Assembly: GCA_964626495.1 (NCBI GenBank)
Contig: CAZVFT010000003.1
Location: forward strand, 1,995 to 53,220
Source: an uncultured bacterium
Lineage (GTDB): Bacteria > Fidelibacterota > Marinisomatia > Marinisomatales > CAZVFT01
Length of the DNA: 51,226 nucleotides
Reading direction: 5' to 3'
A program made the translations under genes and the position numbers. Each line of letters begins with the position of its first letter. The stretch's first letter is position 1. Positions 1,797-34,391 of the stretch are shown here, piece by piece. The notes beneath the pieces are model-generated. The model made no database searches, was not told the DNA's origin, and saw only the letters and a list, made by a program, of their open reading frames with translations.

Positions 1797-1897
1797 GAAC
1801 ACAGGGCACCACCGAGAAGCACAGAGTAACACAGAGAAAATAATCAAAATTTCAACTGCTCTGTGGTTCTCTGAGATCCTCTGTGAACTCTGTGTCC
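1797..1897. repeat. CACAGAG-heptamer inverted-repeat element (gene-less), purL-purM spacer
   Basis: Four CACAGAG-like heptamers at 10-bp period (1800-1836), an AT-rich spacer, then four CTCTGTG-like heptamers (1859-1894). Could fold into a long hairpin. Confidence 0.9.
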
Positions 1898-2972: not shown

Positions 2973-3044
2973 GAACACAGAGTACCACCGAGCAGCACAG
3001 AGTCACACAGAGATAATTTATAAAATTTTAGAAACTCTGTGTTC
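2973..3044. repeat. CACAGAG-heptamer element with truncated right arm, purM-purQ spacer
   Basis: GAACACAGAG tac CACCGAG cag CACAGAG tca CACAGAG, an AT spacer, then a single CTCTGTGTTC. Confidence 0.88.
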
Positions 3045-4403: not shown

Positions 4404-5372
4404 ATGAACTCCTACAAAGAAAAAATTATCCGAGAATTAAACAACTGTTTGACGGTGACTAATCTTCCATATGGGAAAAAAGAAAGTGGTAAGGTTCGTG
4501 ATTCTTATGAGTTTGACGGACGGATGATTTTTATCACCACAGACCGACAAAGCGCTTTCGACCGTATCCTAACTTCCATTCCTTTTAAGGGGCAGGTACT
4601 GAATCAGACCAGCTCCTGGTGGTTTGAACAGACAAAGGAAATTATTCCCAATCATGTTATCTCTGTCCCGGATCCGAATGTGACCATTGGAATTAAATGC
4701 GATGTTTTCCCAATAGAGTTTGTTGTCCGTGGATACATCACAGGCACCACGGATACATCTCTCTGGACTCACTACAACAGAGGGGTTCGGAATTACTGCA
4801 GCAACAAATTACCTGAGGGGTTGCAAAAAAATCAAAAACTTGAAGTACCGCTCCTGACACCCACGACCAAGGATAAAAAGCACGACAGGCCTGTCAGTCC
4901 GGATGAGATTGTGAAAGATGGACTCATGTCCGAGGAAGATTTGGAAACGGTTAGCAATAAAGCGTTTGAACTGTTTACATTCGGACAAGAAACCGCCCAA
5001 AAACATGGTCTGATCCTGGTAGATACCAAGTACGAATTTGGTCGTGATGCTGACGGTAATGTCCTGCTTGTTGATGAAATCCACACACCGGACTCCAGCC
5101 GATACTGGCTTGCTGATAGTTACAAGAAACGGTTTGAGAAGGGTGAAGAGCCTGAGTACATTGATAAGGAATTTCTGCGTTTGTGGTTTGCGGAACACTG
5201 TGATCCATACAATGATGAAATGCTTCCAGAAGCACCTGAAGAATTGGTGATAGAGCTTTCCAGCCGATATATCTTTTTATATGAAACTATTACGGGGCAA
5301 AAGTTGCCATTTCCCGATTCAACAATATCTATTCAAGAACGTATTAATGAAAATTTGAAGGATTATTTATGA
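4404..5372 (+). CDS. purC: SAICAR synthetase
   Basis: GKVRD, TDRQSAFD, IPFKGQVLN, TPTTK, DTKYEFG, DEIHTPDSSRYW, DKEFLR. Confidence 0.97.
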   Translation: MNSYKEKIIRELNNCLTVTNLPYGKKESGKVRDSYEFDGRMIFITTDRQSAFDRILTSIPFKGQVLNQTSSWWFEQTKEIIPNHVISVPDPNVTIGIKCDVFPIEFVVRGYITGTTDTSLWTHYNRGVRNYCSNKLPEGLQKNQKLEVPLLTPTTKDKKHDRPVSPDEIVKDGLMSEEDLETVSNKAFELFTFGQETAQKHGLILVDTKYEFGRDADGNVLLVDEIHTPDSSRYWLADSYKKRFEKGEEPEYIDKEFLRLWFAEHCDPYNDEMLPEAPEELVIELSSRYIFLYETITGQKLPFPDSTISIQERINENLKDYL

Positions 5373-5776
5373 AAGCCGTAATTATAATGGGTTCCACGTC
5401 TGACGAAGCCCACGCTAAAAAAATCATAACCAAGTTGGAGGAACTGGGTATCGCCTTTGATCAGCATGTAGCGTCTGCTCATAAGAAACCTCGAAAGGTA
5501 CTGGAGATTATTGAATCATATAAGAACGAAACGGGTATTGTCTTCATCACAATCGCTGGACGCTCTAATGCTCTTTCCGGTTTCGTGGCTGCAAATTCTG
5601 AATTCCCAACCCTTGCCTGTCCCCCGTTCAAAGACAAAACAGATATGATGATTAACATCCACTCCACACTTCAGATGCCCAGCAACACCCCAGTGATGAC
5701 TGTGCTTGATCCTGGGAATTGCGCACTTGCAGTTAAAAGGATCCTCAGTTTAGCCACAGAGGGCACAGAGAAATAA
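5369..5776 (+). CDS. purE: AIR carboxylase PurE, class II-like
   Basis: IMGSTSD, SAHK, AGRSNALSG, ACPP, STLQMPS. Confidence 0.93.
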   Translation: MKAVIIMGSTSDEAHAKKIITKLEELGIAFDQHVASAHKKPRKVLEIIESYKNETGIVFITIAGRSNALSGFVAANSEFPTLACPPFKDKTDMMINIHSTLQMPSNTPVMTVLDPGNCALAVKRILSLATEGTEK

Positions 5777-6158
5777 ATTGTGGCAGATAAACTAACAGAA
5801 CTAATTATCGCGGCTGCCATCGAAGTACACCGGATTTTGGACCCCGGATTATTAGAATCCATTTACGAAGAAGCCCTATGCCCCGAACTGGCTCTACGTG
5901 GGCTTTCTGTCAAAAGGCAAGTAGAAATTGACGTAACATATAAGGGAAAGGTTATTAAAGGACAACGGATTGATATTCTTGTCGAAGGTCAGGTTGTCGT
6001 TGAATTAAAATCTGTGAGTTCTCTCCCCGAGGTGGCCCTAGCTCAGACCCTTTCATATTTGAAGGCAACAGACCTGAAACGATCTCTTCTCATCAACTTT
6101 GGAGAAAAGCGTCTGGTTGACGGCATAAAGAGGATTTCTCTGTGACCTCTGTGGCTAA
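5750..6158 (+). mobile_element. Putative 409-bp GxxExxY element with 25-bp terminal inverted repeats
   Basis: TTAGCCACAGAGGGCACAGAGAAAT (5750-5774) versus ATTTCTCTGTGACCTCTGTGGCTAA (6134-6158): 24/25 inverted match enclosing a single ORF. Confidence 0.75.
5780..6145 (+). CDS. GxxExxY protein (PD-(D/E)XK nuclease-like)
   Basis: EVHRIL-PGLLESIYEEAL, RIDILV, VELKSV, AQTLSYLK, LLINF. Confidence 0.93.
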   Translation: MADKLTELIIAAAIEVHRILDPGLLESIYEEALCPELALRGLSVKRQVEIDVTYKGKVIKGQRIDILVEGQVVVELKSVSSLPEVALAQTLSYLKATDLKRSLLINFGEKRLVDGIKRISL

Positions 6159-7491
6159 TTCTATTTCTCCTTTGGATGGACGATACGCTGAAAGCGTTAA
6201 AACACTTTCCGATTATTTTTCAGAAGCAACACTCATACGCTACCGGTTGAAAGTTGAAATCGAGTATCTCATTGCTTTAGGAAATGAAAAAGGGGTCAAA
6301 GAACGGTCACCATTTTCAAAAACCGAAAAGGCGCAGTTACGAAAAATATATGAGAACTTTGATTCAACCACTGCTCAAAAAGTTAAAGAAATCGAAGCCA
6401 CTACCAACCACGATGTTAAGGCTATTGAATATTTTCTCCAGACCAAAATTAAAAAATCTCTCCATCCGTGGATTCACTTCGCCCTTACCTCAGAGGATAT
6501 TAACAATCTCGCCTACGCCCTTATGTGGCGTGATGGTGTCAGACAGGCTTATATCCCCACCCTTCAAAAAGTGTGTGGCCATCTGCGTAGATTTGCCATC
6601 CGTTATAAAGACCTACCCCTTCTCGCTCTGACCCACGGTCAACCTGCTACTCCTACTTCACTGGGGAAAGAGTTCGCTGTTTTCGCCAGCCGCCTCCAGG
6701 GGCAGCTCCGGCAGTTGAAAGCCCACCAACTCCAGGGAAAACTCTCCGGTGCTACGGGAACGTGGGCTGCCCACACAACTGCCTATCCCAACGTCAACTG
6801 GGTTGCCTTCAGCAAACGGTTTGTGAAATCCTTGGGTTTAGAGCCCAACCTTATCACCACTCAAATCGAGCCGAACGACTCTCTTGCAGAAAACTACCAT
6901 ATCCTGATTCGCGTAAACACCATTCTGTTGGACCTCTGCCGAGACGTCTGGCTCTACATTAGTCGGGGTATTTTCGGACAGAAAACGAAGAGCGACGAAG
7001 TGGGCTCTTCCACCATGCCGCACAAAGTAAATCCTATCCATTTCGAGAACGCTGAGGGAAACCTTGGCATCGCTAACGCTTACCTGTCTCATCTGGCGCA
7101 AACACTCCCCGTCTCTCGGATGCAGCGAGACCTCTCCGGCAGCACCGTCATACGGAACCAAGGCGTACCGCTGGCTCACTCGCTGCTGGCGTGTAAAAAT
7201 ATACTGAAAGGACTCGACCGCCTCACCATAAACCGTGAGAGAATCCGCGAAGAACTGAACGATCACTTGGAGGTATTAGCAGAAGCTATTCAAACAATTC
7301 TCCGTAAATCGGGTGACCCACATCCATATGAACGGCTGAAAGACTTCACGCGTGGGAAGAAGATAACACAAGATGACATTAGGGCATTTGTTCAGACTCT
7401 CGATCTACCGGAGAAGGAAAGAAAAGCACTGCTAGCGCTGACACCGGAGAATTATATAGGATTGGCTGCAAAAATCGTGGAATTACTATGA
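6142..7491 (+). CDS. purB: Adenylosuccinate lyase
   Basis: ISPLDGRY, TNHDVKAIEY, TSEDINN, THGQPATP, GSSTMPHKVNPI, SRMQRDLS. Confidence 0.97.
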   Translation: MTSVANSISPLDGRYAESVKTLSDYFSEATLIRYRLKVEIEYLIALGNEKGVKERSPFSKTEKAQLRKIYENFDSTTAQKVKEIEATTNHDVKAIEYFLQTKIKKSLHPWIHFALTSEDINNLAYALMWRDGVRQAYIPTLQKVCGHLRRFAIRYKDLPLLALTHGQPATPTSLGKEFAVFASRLQGQLRQLKAHQLQGKLSGATGTWAAHTTAYPNVNWVAFSKRFVKSLGLEPNLITTQIEPNDSLAENYHILIRVNTILLDLCRDVWLYISRGIFGQKTKSDEVGSSTMPHKVNPIHFENAEGNLGIANAYLSHLAQTLPVSRMQRDLSGSTVIRNQGVPLAHSLLACKNILKGLDRLTINRERIREELNDHLEVLAEAIQTILRKSGDPHPYERLKDFTRGKKITQDDIRAFVQTLDLPEKERKALLALTPENYIGLAAKIVELL

Positions 7492-7632
7492 ACACAGAGA
7501 ACCACAGAGAAAGCCTTAGCCCTGGGCGTTCCGCGACTGCGAGCCCTCAGAGAACCACCGAGCAAAGAAAAAACATTCGGGTAAATAATTCTTCTCCGTG
7601 GCACTCTGTGACCCTCCGTGAGCTCTGTGTCC
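7490..7632. repeat. CACAGAG-heptamer inverted-repeat element with nested ~33-bp insertion, purB-purF spacer
   Basis: Left arm CACAGAG x2, GC-rich insert 7510-7545, then CTCAGAG and CACCGAG. Right arm CTCCGTG/CTCTGTG x4 ending TGTGTCC. Confidence 0.9.
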
Positions 7633-7645
7633 AAAGGAAATATTA

Positions 7646-9124
7646 ATGTGCGGTATTGTCGGTATATTTTCTCATAGACCCGTTGCTGGCGAGCTATACG
7701 ATAGCCTGATCCATCTTCAACATCGCGGGCAGGATGCCGCCGGTATTATGACTTATGACAGACGAATGCATAAAGAAAAAGGACTGGGGATGGTACAGGA
7801 TATTTTTACCGAAGATAACATGGGTCTTCTTAGCGGTAATATTGGAGTGGGTCATACCCGCTATCCCACCCACGGTGGATTTGGCCATGGTGAGATTCAG
7901 CCCTTCTGGACAGAAGTCCCCTACGGTATTGCTATGGCACACAATGGAAACCTGGTAAATTATCGGGAATTAGCACGCGAGATAACGAAAAAGGAAAAAC
8001 GATACCTGAATACCACCAGTGATACGGAAACCATTTTACATCTCTTTGCAGACGCACTCAGCAAAAACAGTGTAGCAGAATCAGATGAACAGTTTTTTGA
8101 ACAAATCTGTCAAGCTGTTCAACAGGTATTCCACCGCGCCAGTGGATCTTATTCAACGGTCAGCATGATTGTTGGGAAAGGTATGGTTGTGTTTCGTGAC
8201 CCGCACGGAATCCGACCGCTCTCGATGGGTAAGCGGAAAAATTTGGATGGAACTGATGATTATATCTTCGCTTCAGAGACCACAATGTTTTATGCTCTTG
8301 ATTATACATTAATTGGCAATGTATCCCCTGGAGAAGTAATTTATATCAGTAGTAACGGAAGAAAATTCAATTGTATTCTGCAGAAGAAACAATTTACTCC
8401 CTGCGTTTTTGAATATGTCTATTTTTCCCGACCTGATACTATGATGAACGATGTGAGCGTATACCGGGCTCGCCTGCGAATGGGGCAGAATCTCGCCAAC
8501 CGCTGGAAAAAGCGTTATCCGGGAATTTTACCGGATGTAGTGATTCCAGCACCTGCCACATCCAACACCGCTGCCTTATCCCTGGCTCATGAACTGGGTG
8601 TGCGTTATACGGAAGGATTGTATAAGAATCCCTTTATCGGCCGTACATTTATTATGCCCGGCCAGGAAAGACGAAAAAAATCTGTTAAGTACAAATTGGT
8701 GCCACAGGAAATTGAAATCCGCGACAAAAATGTGATGATTGTAGATGATAGTATTGTTCGAGGAAACACATGTAAAGAAATTGTAAAAATGGTGCGGGAT
8801 TTCGGAGCAAAGAATGTCTACTTCACGGTCTCCTGCCCGCCAGTAAAACTCCCATGCTTCTATGGGGTGGATATGCCTACGAAGTTAGAGCTTATCGCAA
8901 GCCAGATGAACGAGAAGGGAATCCAAGAATTCATAGGAGCAGACATTCTACTCTACCAAGAAATTGATGATCTGGTAGAAGCCGTCACCCGAAAGGGGGA
9001 ACACCATATTGATCGTCCCTGTATGGCATGTCTGGACGGATGGTACGTCACGGGAGATGTAGACGATGAGAAAATGCAGCTCATGGAAAATCAACGAAAT
9101 ATTGAGAGGTCCCAGTTAACATGA
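7646..9124 (+). CDS. purF: Amidophosphoribosyltransferase
   Basis: MCGIVG N-terminus, LQHRGQDAAG, GHTRYPT, HNGNL, CVFEYVYF, VDDSIVRG. Confidence 0.97.
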   Translation: MCGIVGIFSHRPVAGELYDSLIHLQHRGQDAAGIMTYDRRMHKEKGLGMVQDIFTEDNMGLLSGNIGVGHTRYPTHGGFGHGEIQPFWTEVPYGIAMAHNGNLVNYRELAREITKKEKRYLNTTSDTETILHLFADALSKNSVAESDEQFFEQICQAVQQVFHRASGSYSTVSMIVGKGMVVFRDPHGIRPLSMGKRKNLDGTDDYIFASETTMFYALDYTLIGNVSPGEVIYISSNGRKFNCILQKKQFTPCVFEYVYFSRPDTMMNDVSVYRARLRMGQNLANRWKKRYPGILPDVVIPAPATSNTAALSLAHELGVRYTEGLYKNPFIGRTFIMPGQERRKKSVKYKLVPQEIEIRDKNVMIVDDSIVRGNTCKEIVKMVRDFGAKNVYFTVSCPPVKLPCFYGVDMPTKLELIASQMNEKGIQEFIGADILLYQEIDDLVEAVTRKGEHHIDRPCMACLDGWYVTGDVDDEKMQLMENQRNIERSQLT

Positions 9125-32189: not shown

Positions 32190-34130
32190 TCACTTCAACA
32201 ACAATAACTTCTTCGTCTCTGTGAACTCTGTGGCTTCCAGTCGGTATAAGTAAACCCCAGCACCCACAGGGTTACCAAAATTGTCAGTACCATCCCAAAC
32301 CACCTCATGATAACCACTCACCAGTTCACCAGGCTCGCTGTAGGCACGCCGAGGCTTCACCAGTTCTTTTACCTCCCTGCCCATAATATCGTAGATAACA
32401 ATGGCTACATAGGATTGTTCAGGCAGGTTGTATCGGATTGTGGTTACTGGATTGAAGGGGTTGGGATAGTTTTGATAGAGAGCGAATTGGTGAGGGGTGA
32501 GGGGTAATTCGTGAGTAAATCCCGCTGCTCCGTATTCATATGCACCCATATCGGGAGCAAAACCGACATATTCATCCGGGCTGAAATCAACAACCGTATC
32601 TCCCATCCAGACAAAGAAATCAGTACCAGTATCTATGCAGGGGGAACCTTCTTGAAGATGAAAGTCTGTGCTATCAACGAACTGCGGATCGGCATCGATA
32701 TTGCCTGTACCCGCCCAGCCTCCTTCCACATCGCTATAGACTACTGTGATATCACTTGAACCATAGGAGCTATCAACCACAATTTCTTCATTTTCATTTC
32801 CCCATACGATGGAGTTGACCACAATGGGGTGAGCACCACCGTCGGTTCGTATTCCACGAAGATTTGCCACAATGGTATTGTTCACTATCTGTGCCTCGGA
32901 GTCGTACATACAGACAATCCCTTCTCCCTCATTTCCTGCAATCACATTTCGAAAGATCCGTGGAGAATTATCACCCCAGATACAAATACCACCTCCATCC
33001 CCAAAATCCATGACATTCCACTCGATGGTATTGCCTTCAATTAGCGGTTCACTACCCACACCCACAAATATTCCAGCTCCCTCGGCAACTCCATATCCAC
33101 TCATCGTCTCGTTTGAACGAATGATATTATCAAGAACTAACACATCTGAACTGTCCCGGATACAGATACCAGCTCCGGCATAGGCGCCATAGTTTTCACT
33201 GATGGTATTGCCAAGAATTTGAGCATCCGAATAACTGCAAAAAATGCCGGCACCATCAACATACCAATCACAGTAATTTTGAATGATTATGTTATTCTCA
33301 ATAATGGGTGAGGAATGGATGCAGCGGATACCTCCACCTCCTACCAGGAGTGTGTCACCATAAATAGCAAATCCCCTCTTAATTGTAAATCCAGTTAAAA
33401 CAGAATTTTCATCTTCTCCTGAAATGAAGGATACAACACTCCCACTGCTATCCCCATCAATAACAGTTTGTGAGATATAAGATGTATCACTGGTAGTAAG
33501 ATACAATGACCCCACCACAATATTCTTCCCATGGTAGTTGATATTTTCTACGTAGGTGCCTTCGTGGACAAGAATGGTGTCACCCTCACTTGACACATTG
33601 ATCCCATGCTGGATGGTGGCAAATGGATTTTCCGCAGAGCCGTCGCCGGTGGTATCATTGCCAGTGGTAGAGACATGCCAGACGGGACCAGAATATCCCG
33701 CCGGATAGGTAGTCACCACATAATTAACTGTATCAGAATAAACAGTACTATCAACATCCAATATTACCAGCTGAACCGTACCCGTCCCCTCATTTGTATT
33801 CGCATTTATGTAAAGTGTGAAATGCCGGCATGAATCCGGTTCCACTGGACTGCTGCCAAAGTCATAATTCGTAGCTATACTGTCAATGATAGGCGGATAA
33901 CACAAACCATCCAAACACATTCTCGATAACCAGTTTTCAGGTAAATCATCCACTGTTCTAACAATGGCAACAATAATCGTATCAAGTGAAACGTTCGTAA
34001 TCGTTGCATCGAACACCACAAGACTGTCTAACTCAATATATGCCTCTGTATCACCTGTTTCAAAAGTGAAACTCTGGGCTGTTATTATTCTTATAAAAAT
34101 TGTGGTAATAATAAGACCTTTTATTTTCAT
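32190..34130 (-). CDS. Secreted right-handed beta-helix (DUF1565-like) protein with FlgD/T9SS-type C-terminal domain
   Basis: WHVSTTGND..GS.ENPFATIQ, parallel beta-helix N-ladder repeats, DMGAYEY, QNYPNPFNP. ATG 34130 follows AGGAGG. Confidence 0.85.
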   Translation of the reverse strand: MKIKGLIITTIFIRIITAQSFTFETGDTEAYIELDSLVVFDATITNVSLDTIIVAIVRTVDDLPENWLSRMCLDGLCYPPIIDSIATNYDFGSSPVEPDSCRHFTLYINANTNEGTGTVQLVILDVDSTVYSDTVNYVVTTYPAGYSGPVWHVSTTGNDTTGDGSAENPFATIQHGINVSSEGDTILVHEGTYVENINYHGKNIVVGSLYLTTSDTSYISQTVIDGDSSGSVVSFISGEDENSVLTGFTIKRGFAIYGDTLLVGGGGIRCIHSSPIIENNIIIQNYCDWYVDGAGIFCSYSDAQILGNTISENYGAYAGAGICIRDSSDVLVLDNIIRSNETMSGYGVAEGAGIFVGVGSEPLIEGNTIEWNVMDFGDGGGICIWGDNSPRIFRNVIAGNEGEGIVCMYDSEAQIVNNTIVANLRGIRTDGGAHPIVVNSIVWGNENEEIVVDSSYGSSDITVVYSDVEGGWAGTGNIDADPQFVDSTDFHLQEGSPCIDTGTDFFVWMGDTVVDFSPDEYVGFAPDMGAYEYGAAGFTHELPLTPHQFALYQNYPNPFNPVTTIRYNLPEQSYVAIVIYDIMGREVKELVKPRRAYSEPGELVSGYHEVVWDGTDNFGNPVGAGVYLYRLEATEFTETKKLLLLK

Positions 34131-34391
34131 TTTATTCCTCCTGAGATGAGGGTGAAAAATTTCTGATTGTGGCACAATTTTATATGAGAGATTGATGAAA
34201 TTAAGCTCGAGTAACAGATCTGTTTCATTCAATTCTCCAGTACAATTTAATCTTACTCATCAAAATGAGAAATGTCAATGTCAAAATTTGAATAAGTGAA
34301 GAAAAGTTGATTATTCTAAAATATACCAATAAATTTGCCACCACTTTTGGAACGTTCATAACACGATTTATTAAAAGAGAAAGATTAAGAA

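Follow-up and report, generated by a model that had tools for sequence, protein, structure and literature searches.

Inverted heptamer arrays around a GxxExxY gene at a purE-purB junction: a candidate family of selfish cassettes

Repetitive extragenic palindromic (REP) elements are imperfect palindromes, and RAYT, the REP-associated tyrosine transposase, is a Y1 HUH transposase. The Correia elements of Neisseria are bacterial miniature inverted-repeat transposable elements (MITEs) with TA duplication, the attC sites of integron cassettes are imperfect inverted repeats of 7-bp boxes separated by unpaired spacers, and free-standing homing endonuclease genes include PD-(D/E)XK types. The intervening sequence (IVS) of the Coxiella 23S rRNA bears an open reading frame (ORF) and ends in a 28-bp stem that RNase III cleaves, while its origin and mobility are described as not known in the part of the source cited here (PMC4990558). 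The subject of this study is a GxxExxY gene enclosed by inverted arrays of a 7-nt word, which lies between purE and purB in a 51,226-nt stretch of DNA from an uncultured Marinisomatales bacterium (contig CAZVFT010000003.1, positions 1,995 to 53,220), below referred to as the window.

The GxxExxY family, PF13366, is listed as having unknown function in the tabulated part of PMC3424549, and is otherwise mentioned in passing beside a reverse transcriptase. No description of such cassettes was found in the open full-text literature (subscription journals and supplements lie outside this search), and the family of heptamer-armed GxxExxY cassettes is apparently undescribed. We lean, if only slightly, towards the reading that the unit in the window is one copy of a family of promoterless selfish cassettes of ~0.4-0.5 kb, in which the encoded protein recognizes the arms and probably cleaves the DNA at them. 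That the gene and the arms behave as one mobile unit is supported by sequence comparison, while we infer nuclease-driven mobility, DNA binding, nuclease activity, the cut site and the integration route.

The cassette resembles the 23S rRNA IVS, which according to the cited part of PMC4990558 is a selfish insert of ~0.4-0.5 kb with one ORF of ~120 aa and terminal inverted repeats, sporadic and with evidence of horizontal transfer. Moreover, in one relative (genome G005; here and below G, C and L numbers denote genomes, contigs and loci) an IVS-type PF05635 gene with inverted word arrays fills the purE-purB junction. Unlike the IVS, the cassette is situated in an mRNA operon junction and not in an rRNA helix, its ORF encodes a PD-(D/E)XK protein and not a four-helix bundle, and its arms are arrays of 7-nt words with unpaired spacers instead of a continuous stem.

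As in REP/REPIN-RAYT systems, the gene is placed between inverted short repeats, there are many gene-less doublets, and the abundance of repeats follows the gene (38/41 genomes; 34/41 for Y1_Tnp), but the protein is PD-(D/E)XK and not HUH/Y1, and the repeats are tandem 7-mers with a period of 9-10 bp. The likeness to free-standing homing endonuclease genes consists in a small, patchily distributed, cross-lineage nuclease gene and in the recurrence of the same junction with different gene lineages, and gene-less hairpins of the same word at this junction in relatives could be the uncut target; here, however, neither an intron nor an intein is involved, after insertion the words presumed to be recognized persist on both sides, and the homology arms would be only 20-35 bp. 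Integron cassettes share promoterless small ORFs, read-through expression and toxin-antitoxin cargo, but here the ORF is inside the hairpin, the cassettes are single and scattered at housekeeping junctions, and there is no linked tyrosine recombinase (intI was not searched for). Finally, the gene-less units, 70-190 nt long and bounded by terminal inverted repeats, resemble Correia elements in lying at gene junctions and being co-transcribed with neighbours, the differences being that a coding full-length form exists here, that the ends are word arrays, and that TA duplication is not established.

The cassette between purE and purB

The arms (Table 1) form an inverted repeat of 25 nt, complementary at 24 of 25 positions (96%) and separated by 359 nt. 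Each contains two CACAGAG words with a period of 9 bp, at 5755 and 5764 on the plus strand and at 6138 and 6147 on the minus strand. The word is found 26 times in the window, compared to 4.37 expected, and this number was reached in none of 100 shuffles. The enclosed ORF matches PF13366 (PDDEXK_3) with an E-value of 1.4e-37 and 129 bits (cut-off 22) and TIGR04256 (GxxExxY) with 132.4 bits (cut-off 35). The repeat search and the profile matches thus confirm the earlier note, made from the sequence alone, that a 121-aa GxxExxY ORF is enclosed by 24/25 inverted repeats with paired CACAGAG words at the purE-purB site. Gene and arms take up the junction completely. The terminal inverted repeats enclose the gene as in insertion sequences, with the family-wide outer consensus TARC/CRC...GYG/GYWA, where the slash marks the outer edge of the outermost word.

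The motif residues of the family are present in the window protein: G23, E26 and Y29 (GxxExxY), D65, E75-x-K77, and Q89...Y93. In an alignment of 28 sequences G23, E26, K77 and Y93 are invariant, and Y29, D65, E75 and Q89 are at least 90% conserved, which bears out the earlier observation that the putative catalytic D, ExK and QxxxY are intact. In the same alignment D21 replaces a Gly conserved in at least 90% of sequences. This LDPG variant had been taken as a hint of early decay, a suggestion that is weak given the intact catalytic motifs and a ratio of non-synonymous to synonymous differences per site (pN/pS) of ~0.36. The AlphaFold (AF2) model has pLDDT of 94.6 and pTM of 0.87, with the element order H-H-E-E-E-H-E (H, helix; E, strand). 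Foldseek matches in the PDB are weak and generic for PD-(D/E)XK (best E-value 2.4e-3, TM-score 0.44-0.54), including Cas4 SSO0001, AddAB/AdnAB, lambda exonuclease, splicing endonuclease and Hjc, and a phmmer search of PDB sequences with the window protein yielded no match. None of the known transposase classes (DDE, HUH, serine, tyrosine) is matched by the cassette protein, the sole family matched being PD-(D/E)XK.

The ends of the cassette overlap the neighbouring genes. The purE gene runs on through the left arm, so that the native stop position of relatives is replaced by read-through, and its TAA stop (5774-5776) begins on the last base of the arm, at the inner edge; the TGA stop of the cassette ORF falls within the inner word of the right arm. 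The purE product, assigned by Pfam AIRC, scores 117.9 with TIGR01162, under the cut-off of that model (149.6). The start of purB is a GTG of the right arm, at 6142 or 6151 (GTG GCT AAT = M A N). In relatives with a minimal junction the purE stop is overlapped by the purB GTG (GTGTCTGA), while in filled junctions the last word provides the GTG start of purB (GTG GCT/GCA AAT). The GTG of the terminal word likewise starts purM in three other Marinimicrobia records, and a lipoprotein gene adjoining another cassette of the host genome. No promoter-like or terminator-like site was found in the window cassette. By giving the upstream gene a stop codon region and the downstream gene a GTG start, the cassette ends would allow the host operon to keep working and to transcribe the cassette by read-through. 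For annotation this means that such inserts can provide housekeeping genes, here purE and purB, with their stop or start codons.

Gene and arms as one unit

The content of the purE-purB junction varies among relatives. Thirty purB loci from the host's order were fetched, and purE adjoins purB in 28 of them (Table 1). Empty purE-purB junctions in relatives had been proposed in the earlier note as a check of mobility, and eight of the 28 are indeed minimal and empty, while the cassettes at this site come from three different subclades. The three GxxExxY proteins located at or beside the junction outside the host's genus are 49-53% identical to the window protein and belong to different subclades. 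In G004 the GxxExxY gene is found after purB, flanked by two direct copies of the complete CACAGAG hairpin (at this locus, L011, a run of N of ~120 bases, possibly an assembly gap, lies inside the first hairpin after purB). Moreover, in three other Marinimicrobia records the junction upstream of purM, which holds a gene-less hairpin in the window, contains a cassette whose protein is 80-82% identical.

Two more cassettes of the host genome (G000; 2.28 Mb, 129 contigs, 40% G+C) can be compared with the sister genome G001. The site of the second cassette (C47) is empty in G001 (99 vs 539 nt, flanks 90-93% identical), and the two neighbouring genes there overlap. The site of the third (C33) is occupied in G001 by a 1685-nt insert (C219:4433-6117) with a YhcG/DUF1016 PD-(D/E)XK gene; single CGCGAAT words are present near this insert (loci L256, L257).

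The homologue scan, with one genome per species, gave 80 loci, the closest named records being metagenome-assembled genomes (MAGs) of Candidatus Neomarinimicrobiota / Marinimicrobia. Altogether 117 loci were examined for arm layout, with an array defined by the strict rule as at least two words: 53 have the strict canonical left-right layout, a further 42 carry an array on one or both sides, and in 22 there is none. Best-segment identity is 58-90% for the 42 closest loci (L076-L117), which come from Planctomycetota, Acidobacteriota, Bacteroidota, Nitrospirota, Pseudomonadota, Bacillota, Hydrogenedentota, Omnitrophota, Calditrichaceae and Dadabacteria, and from the archaea ANME-2 (anaerobic methanotrophs) and Methanophagales. 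By eye, CACAGAG-type words adjoin the gene in all 42 of them; by the strict rule, 39 have at least one array, and 22 have arrays on both sides (21 plainly canonical, one with an extra array). The word is constant in these cassettes, and the spacers vary between copies. More distant homologues bear other words, such as CGCAAAG, CACGAAT and CGCGGAT, and metagenome relatives of the host's CACGAAT-class paralogue (single-protein query) have, by eye, mostly CACGAAT-type arrays with tagc/.../gcta ends. Hence, of the expectation that CACAGAG inverted ends are general, inverted word arrays at most of the 117 loci remain, while the word itself varies by clade and 22 loci have no array by the strict rule.

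Compared with the sister genome G001, the proportion of synonymous differences (pS) amounts to 0.13 in the cassette gene (12 of 91 sites), to 0.41 in purE and to 0.50 in purB; the difference between the cassette gene and purE corresponds to z ~4.2, as computed from the counts. Since pS is lower in the cassette gene than in both flanking genes, the cassette is either of more recent origin than its flanks or has undergone a later exchange. The pN/pS ratio given above is based on 12 synonymous and 13 non-synonymous differences from the sister copy.

Two observations on the same comparison may be added. Divergence is uneven along the flanking genes: in the first 75 codons of purB (window 6142-6370 vs L013) pS is 0.79 and pN is 0.32, compared to 0.23 and 0.02 in the middle of the gene, and the 3' third of purE, adjoining the cassette, is more diverged from the sister genome (pS 0.65). 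Both G001 and a related strain in the public run X9 (~92% identity, a small share of the run) have one left word, whereas the host genome has two.

Taken together, the empty and differently filled junctions, the recurrence of this protein clade with CACAGAG arms at unrelated sites across many phyla and in archaea, and the lower age of the cassette argue for one mobile unit formed by gene and arms. The earlier note had arrived at the same unit, and the junction states, the empty C47 site, the spread and pS all agree with it. Its further description as a minimal IS-like or homing unit stands as far as movement of the whole unit is concerned, while the part of the protein in moving and cutting is something we infer.

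Table 1. Features of the window, states of the purE-purB junction in the host's order, and four-helix-bundle genes of the host genome
Feature	Position or extent	Strand	Remarks
Gene-less hairpin upstream of purM	1810..1894 (about)	.	3 + 3 CACAGAG-type words, 22-nt loop
Gene-less element between purM and next pur gene	2976..3041 (about)	.	Forward CACAGAG, CACCGAG, CACAGAG, CACAGAG; one reverse word
purE-family gene (aminoimidazole ribonucleotide (AIR) carboxylase)	5369..5776	+	Pfam AIRC 126.7 bits, cut-off 30
Left arm	5750..5774	.	TTAGC + CACAGAG-GG-CACAGAG + AAAT; also codes the last codons of purE (..ATEGTEK)
GxxExxY / PF13366 minimal PD-(D/E)XK gene	5780..6145	+	121 aa, GTG start
Right arm	6134..6158	.	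ATTT + CTCTGTG-AC-CTCTGTG + GCTAA; holds purB GTG start(s)
purB (adenylosuccinate lyase)	6142..7491	+	NF006764, 649 bits; first 3-6 codons from the right arm
Composite gene-less element between purB and purF	7493..7629 (about)	.	2 + 2 forward words split by GC-rich insert; 4 reverse words
Solo two-word CACAGAG array	32217..32232	-	Inside the 3' end of minus-strand ORF 32190-34232
Junction minimal, empty	31-34 nt between purE codon 126 and purB codon 12		8/28 loci
Junction short, without words	52-86 nt		7/28 loci
Junction with a single CACAGAG word			1/28 loci
Junction with GxxExxY cassette, CACAGAG-type arms			4/28 loci: own genome, same-genus G001, G022, G009; three different subclades
Junction with gene-less CACAGAG hairpin			1/28 loci (G004)
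Junction with hairpin and unknown ORF			1/28 loci
Junction with small DUF1059-like ORF and a word			1/28 loci
Junction with PF05635 four-helix-bundle gene between GTGTTC-type arrays			1/28 loci (G005)
Junction with hairpin of GTGTT type	141-nt interval, hairpin of roughly 110 nt		3/28 loci (L015, L016, L017 = G018, G003, G019)
Junction with insert	245 nt		1/28 loci
Four-helix-bundle (TIGR02436 / 23S rRNA IVS protein family) genes	G000 C53:12925-13242, C35:2780-3100, C14:8342-8659, C61:7576-7839, C76:11318-11632		Between inverted periodic word arrays

Word sequence and its covariation with the protein

The identity between arms at word positions 1 to 7 is 1.0, 0.86, 1.0, 0.66, 0.97, 1.0 and 0.99 (131 word pairs), and the corresponding majority fractions within cassettes are 1.0, 0.92, 1.0, 0.78, 0.98, 1.0 and 0.98 (71 cassettes), with positions 1, 3 and 6 fixed by the word search pattern itself. 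For the 38 cassettes with words other than CACAGAG, positions 5 and 7 have majority fractions of 0.96 and 0.97. The spacers of the two arms agree at 56 of 136 bases (41%) and are identical in 19 of the 70 equal-length pairs (of 74). Among the mismatches between arms there are 28 transitions compatible with G-U pairing, 31 incompatible ones and 89 transversions, that is, no wobble asymmetry. As the words agree, the spacers differ, and there is no G-U bias, the constraint lies on the word as a sequence rather than on continuous pairing. Next to the outermost word, on its outer side, the consensus reads T-A-R-C at the left end and G-Y-(T or A)-A at the right end, with C in position -1 in 44 of 54 cassettes and G in position +1 in 45 of 56.

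These data bear on the possibility that the cassette is an RNA-level element like the rRNA IVS, whose arms pair in the transcript, where RNase III trims the insert or separates the cistrons, with the ORF as a passenger of unrelated function and spread via some other factor or ordinary recombination. The 24/25 stem is indeed present in both the minimum free energy and the centroid RNA folds of the window copy, but the fold z-score is only -1.45, the spacers are mostly non-complementary, and the mismatches show no G-U bias; selection for an RNA stem as the main constraint was set aside on these grounds. A mere stem would neither conserve the word sequence nor leave the spacers unpaired, while the word sequence itself is kept across phyla and is tied to the protein clade. 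The promoterless position inside an operon would suit such an element, as would the gene for a '23S rRNA IVS protein' (PF05635) between inverted arrays at the same junction in G005 and, in the cited part of PMC4990558, the RNase III cleavage of the 28-bp terminal stem of the Coxiella IVS. In the window an RNA-library contig spans 5267-6326 unbroken and two others each cross one arm, which speaks against processing only in so far as contigs, which can demonstrate neither processing nor a single transcript, and which may stem from DNA carry-over, allow. On balance, we consider the RNA-level explanation unlikely.

The host genome encodes nine GxxExxY proteins, and all nine genes are flanked by arrays of 7-nt words with a period of 9-10 bp. 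The words differ among the copies (CACAGAG, CACGAAT/CACTAAT, CACTAAG, CGCAAAG, CGCGAAT/CGCTAAT) and can be described by the general pattern C[AG]CN[AG]A[GT], or CRC-N-RAK. The word class follows the protein phylogeny: on the tree of 38 proteins from the host's order it changes 13 times, compared to 23.1 for shuffled classes, and none of 200 shuffles was as low. On the tree of 71 proteins there are three changes at word position 7 (17.7 shuffled), eight at position 5 (18.4) and ten at position 2 (15.4). Covariation of motif variants with protein clades, raised as a question in the earlier note, is therefore seen on both trees.

At the level of single residues, the column aligned with Thr6 of the window protein correlates with word position 5 (118 distinct proteins, 116 of them with a residue in this column). 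With G in position 5, Thr is found in 52 of 59 proteins and Ser in the other seven; with A, Ser is the most frequent residue (47), followed by Gly (4), Ala (3) and Val (3), and Thr occurs in none of 57. Of 11 independent pairs on the best tree, ten change in the same direction, none in the opposite one, and one is a tie (sign test p = 0.002), though this column is the top one of 117 and was picked post hoc, so that the pair test fails correction (Bonferroni ~0.23), and the 11 pairs include unsupported branches, well-supported ones alone giving three pairs in the 71-protein set. All four Thr codons are used in this column (ACA 12, ACT 16, ACC 11, ACG 9), which places the signal at the protein level. 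Further candidate pairs of residue and word (I14/M14 as well as the C-terminal DG indel for position 7, H86 for position 2) were rejected as clade markers with too few independent changes. A protein that reads the words is favoured here, since a shared host factor would impose a single word and not clade-specific ones.

The proposed family unit is a GxxExxY gene between inverted CRC-N-RAK arrays, with the outer boundary (T)A-R-C/CRC...GYG/G-Y-(T or A)-A, which would move as a whole within and between genomes, landing at tight gene junctions. The protein would bind the words on both arms, with the N-terminal helix around Thr6 reading word position 5, and would cut within cognate gene-less arrays or else on or close to the conserved boundary. 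Host recombination or repair may then place a copy of the cassette, or the cassette itself, in cognate arrays or at junctions, much as in homing, the gene-less hairpins being targets or deletion remnants. Homing-like recombination at cognate arrays is favoured over cut-and-paste because the same junction hosts different lineages with the same word, gene-less hairpins occupy sites that hold the gene in relatives, and hairpin-gene-hairpin forms exist.

More tentatively, and with less than even confidence, we suggest a new class of mobile elements that crosses bacteria and archaea, in which a 120-aa PD-(D/E)XK nuclease, the sole protein, reads a short, evolvable address word in its own arms by a simple code of residue and base (Thr6 for G at position 5; Ser, Ala, Gly or Val for A), cuts there and spreads the cassette and the gene-less hairpins into operon junctions, the ends rebuilding the stop and start codons of the neighbours. 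If this is true, PF13366, a very common family (many phyla; up to nine copies in a 2.3-Mb genome), gains a role as both engine and reader of a selfish cassette, and a minimal PD-(D/E)XK enzyme joins the list of prokaryotic DNA movers. It would also account for a large group of palindromic repeats between genes at which metagenome assemblies break, and would provide a small, naturally diversified system of protein-DNA recognition, in which a word of 7 nt is read by 120 aa and at least one residue is a candidate for specificity. The IVS elements with four-helix-bundle genes would then be a sister solution, making the puzzle of how ORF-bearing IVSs move testable, and protein-coding operon junctions are linked to the old question of where ORF-bearing rRNA intervening sequences originate.

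Gene-less arrays and other array carriers

Clusters of at least two CRC-N-RAK words are frequent in the host genome (154, compared to 32 in the reversed sequence), and many of them are gene-less hairpins or elements of 130-190 nt. The gene-less arrays occupy many housekeeping junctions with no obvious regulatory logic. In a public run (X2), a 76-nt low-depth contig contains the two arms of the window cassette around a 26-nt loop, with different flanks, and is absent from the host genome.

In the comparison of arrays and genes in 41 genomes of the host's order, the GxxExxY gene is present in 26 (1-9 copies each), of which 24 have three-word arrays. Of the 15 genomes that lack the gene, only G005 has such arrays, two in number, and the other 14 have none; the control with the reversed pattern gives 0-4. 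Presence or absence of gene and arrays thus agrees in 38 of 41 genomes, and the pattern is patchy inside families and genera (e.g. G002 vs G017 and G031). The three largest numbers of GAG arrays (46 in G004, 23 in G000, 22 in G009) belong to genomes with a GAG-class gene, and the background of the AAT two-word pattern in gene-less genomes is 0-6. This class-by-class matching is only partly informative, as MAGs are incomplete, not all gene copies are classified, and the AAG and GAT patterns lie outside it. The near confinement of arrays to gene-bearing genomes supports the claim that repeat abundance tracks the gene. That the nearby CACAGAG hairpins depend on the gene as its non-autonomous partners is a conjecture, weakened by the incomplete class match and by the Y1 transposase genes, which track arrays nearly as well.

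The latter point relates to the possibility that the arrays are independent REP/MITE-like palindromes moved by an unlinked Y1/RAYT enzyme, with GxxExxY, four-helix-bundle and toxin-antitoxin genes as cargo or lodgers. Gene-less hairpins and solo arrays do outnumber the genes (44 three-word arrays vs nine GxxExxY genes in the host), other cargo is found between arrays, and Y1 genes (PF01797) agree with arrays in 34 of 41 genomes; from this co-occurrence, general richness in mobile DNA is a confounder. The two Y1_Tnp genes of the host genome, C89 and C43, are both away from the window cassette. The weaker one, the Y1-like C43, adjoins palindromes containing CGCAAAG, whereas the clearer one (G000:C89:165-503) is flanked by palindromes of a different, GC-rich family, GGCGGGCAGG...CCTGCCCGCC, and not by CRC-N-RAK arrays. 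Moreover, G029 has eight arrays and two GxxExxY genes but no Y1_Tnp, while G011 and G028 have Y1_Tnp and no arrays. For a passive lodger one would not expect the word class to follow the protein clade or a residue to covary with a word position, and the four-helix-bundle cassettes use unrelated words. We regard this explanation as distinctly unlikely. RAYT is judged an unlikely mover of the arrays, given the own GC-rich palindromes of the C89 gene and the mismatched presence of arrays and Y1 genes in some genomes.

Several observations weigh against the cassette reading preferred here. No target-site duplication is clear at the window cassette, where the earlier note had likewise seen none, and none is consistent in 56 canonical cassettes, the TA at -4/-3 and +3/+4 being inseparable from the inverted repeat; the filled/empty pair at the C47 site has no clean duplication or insertion scar. 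The host genome has no near-identical cassette copies, its nine paralogues having different words and being far apart on the tree, hence there is no sign of recent within-genome bursts. Other layouts exist (hairpin-gene-hairpin, direct arrays, reversed polarity). GAG arrays without an identified GAG-class gene are found in G033 (15), G031 (13), G013 (5) and G018 (5), genomes that are 87-99% complete. Seven four-helix-bundle genes (TIGR02436) of the host are also situated between inverted arrays, with quite different words, and a toxin-antitoxin pair of HepT-like (PF20797) and nucleotidyltransferase (PF18765) genes (G000:C33:20704-21491, L262) lies between arrays too, so arms can exist without a cassette-borne nuclease. 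Further points on this side are the predicted RNA stem of the window copy, which may have a role in RNA, the agreement of Y1 genes with arrays, the post hoc choice of the Thr6 column, and the seven cassettes in which Ser occurs with G.

Some of these points would fit a protein that is a sequence-specific DNA-binding or defence/addiction factor with arrays as operator or protection sites, the unit being inherited mostly vertically or by ordinary transfer, with no role in movement. Residue-word covariation bears on recognition and not on catalysis, pN/pS of ~0.36 indicates a protein under selection, and neither near-identical copies within the host genome nor target duplication were found. However, the catalytic D...ExK is invariant or nearly so across the family, and the same clade with the same arms occurs at unrelated junctions in many phyla and archaea. 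At orthologous sites the cassette is missing or something else is inserted, its age is lower than that of the flanking genes, and arrays at many housekeeping junctions have no obvious regulatory logic. To this explanation we assign little probability.

The remaining observations concern array carriers other than the cassettes. The five four-helix-bundle genes listed in Table 1 each have an unrelated word of their own: GGGAGA-rich, ACAAAT, TTCAAGT, ACGTAAT and GATGGTT. The two sides of the HepT-like/nucleotidyltransferase pair differ in class (CGCGAAT/CACGAAT vs CGCAAAG/CGCAGAG). A conserved AT-rich core characterizes families of gene-less elements, 130-190 nt long, at C30:12633-12818, C32:1592-1777 and C39:7192 of the host genome, with further such elements at C4:36886-37014, C5:7909-8047, C27:14421-14549 and C44:163-282. 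Their ends bear different word classes (e.g. CACAGAG at one end and a CACGAAT-type word at the other), and these mixed-class ends are unexplained by a one-protein, one-word model.

GC-rich pieces similar to the C89 palindromes abut some word arrays (e.g. C25:3731, C32:7436, C36:10055), and one resembling them splits the left arm of the window element at 7493-7629. This element, between purB and purF, is crossed by a 52-aa ORF (7488-7646), whose ATG overlaps the purB stop (ATGA) and whose TAA overlaps the purF ATG (TAATG), as if bridging translational coupling.

Many GxxExxY genes of relatives lie less than 200 nt from a contig end (G027:C135, G006:C70, G033:C228, G017:C83 and others), which suggests that the word arrays break metagenome assemblies. 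Finally, the GTGTT-type hairpins at the purE-purB junction represent a second hairpin family of ~110 nt with an 8-nt period and the opposite polarity (GTG outermost on the left), which shares its word type with the four-helix-bundle cassette of G005.

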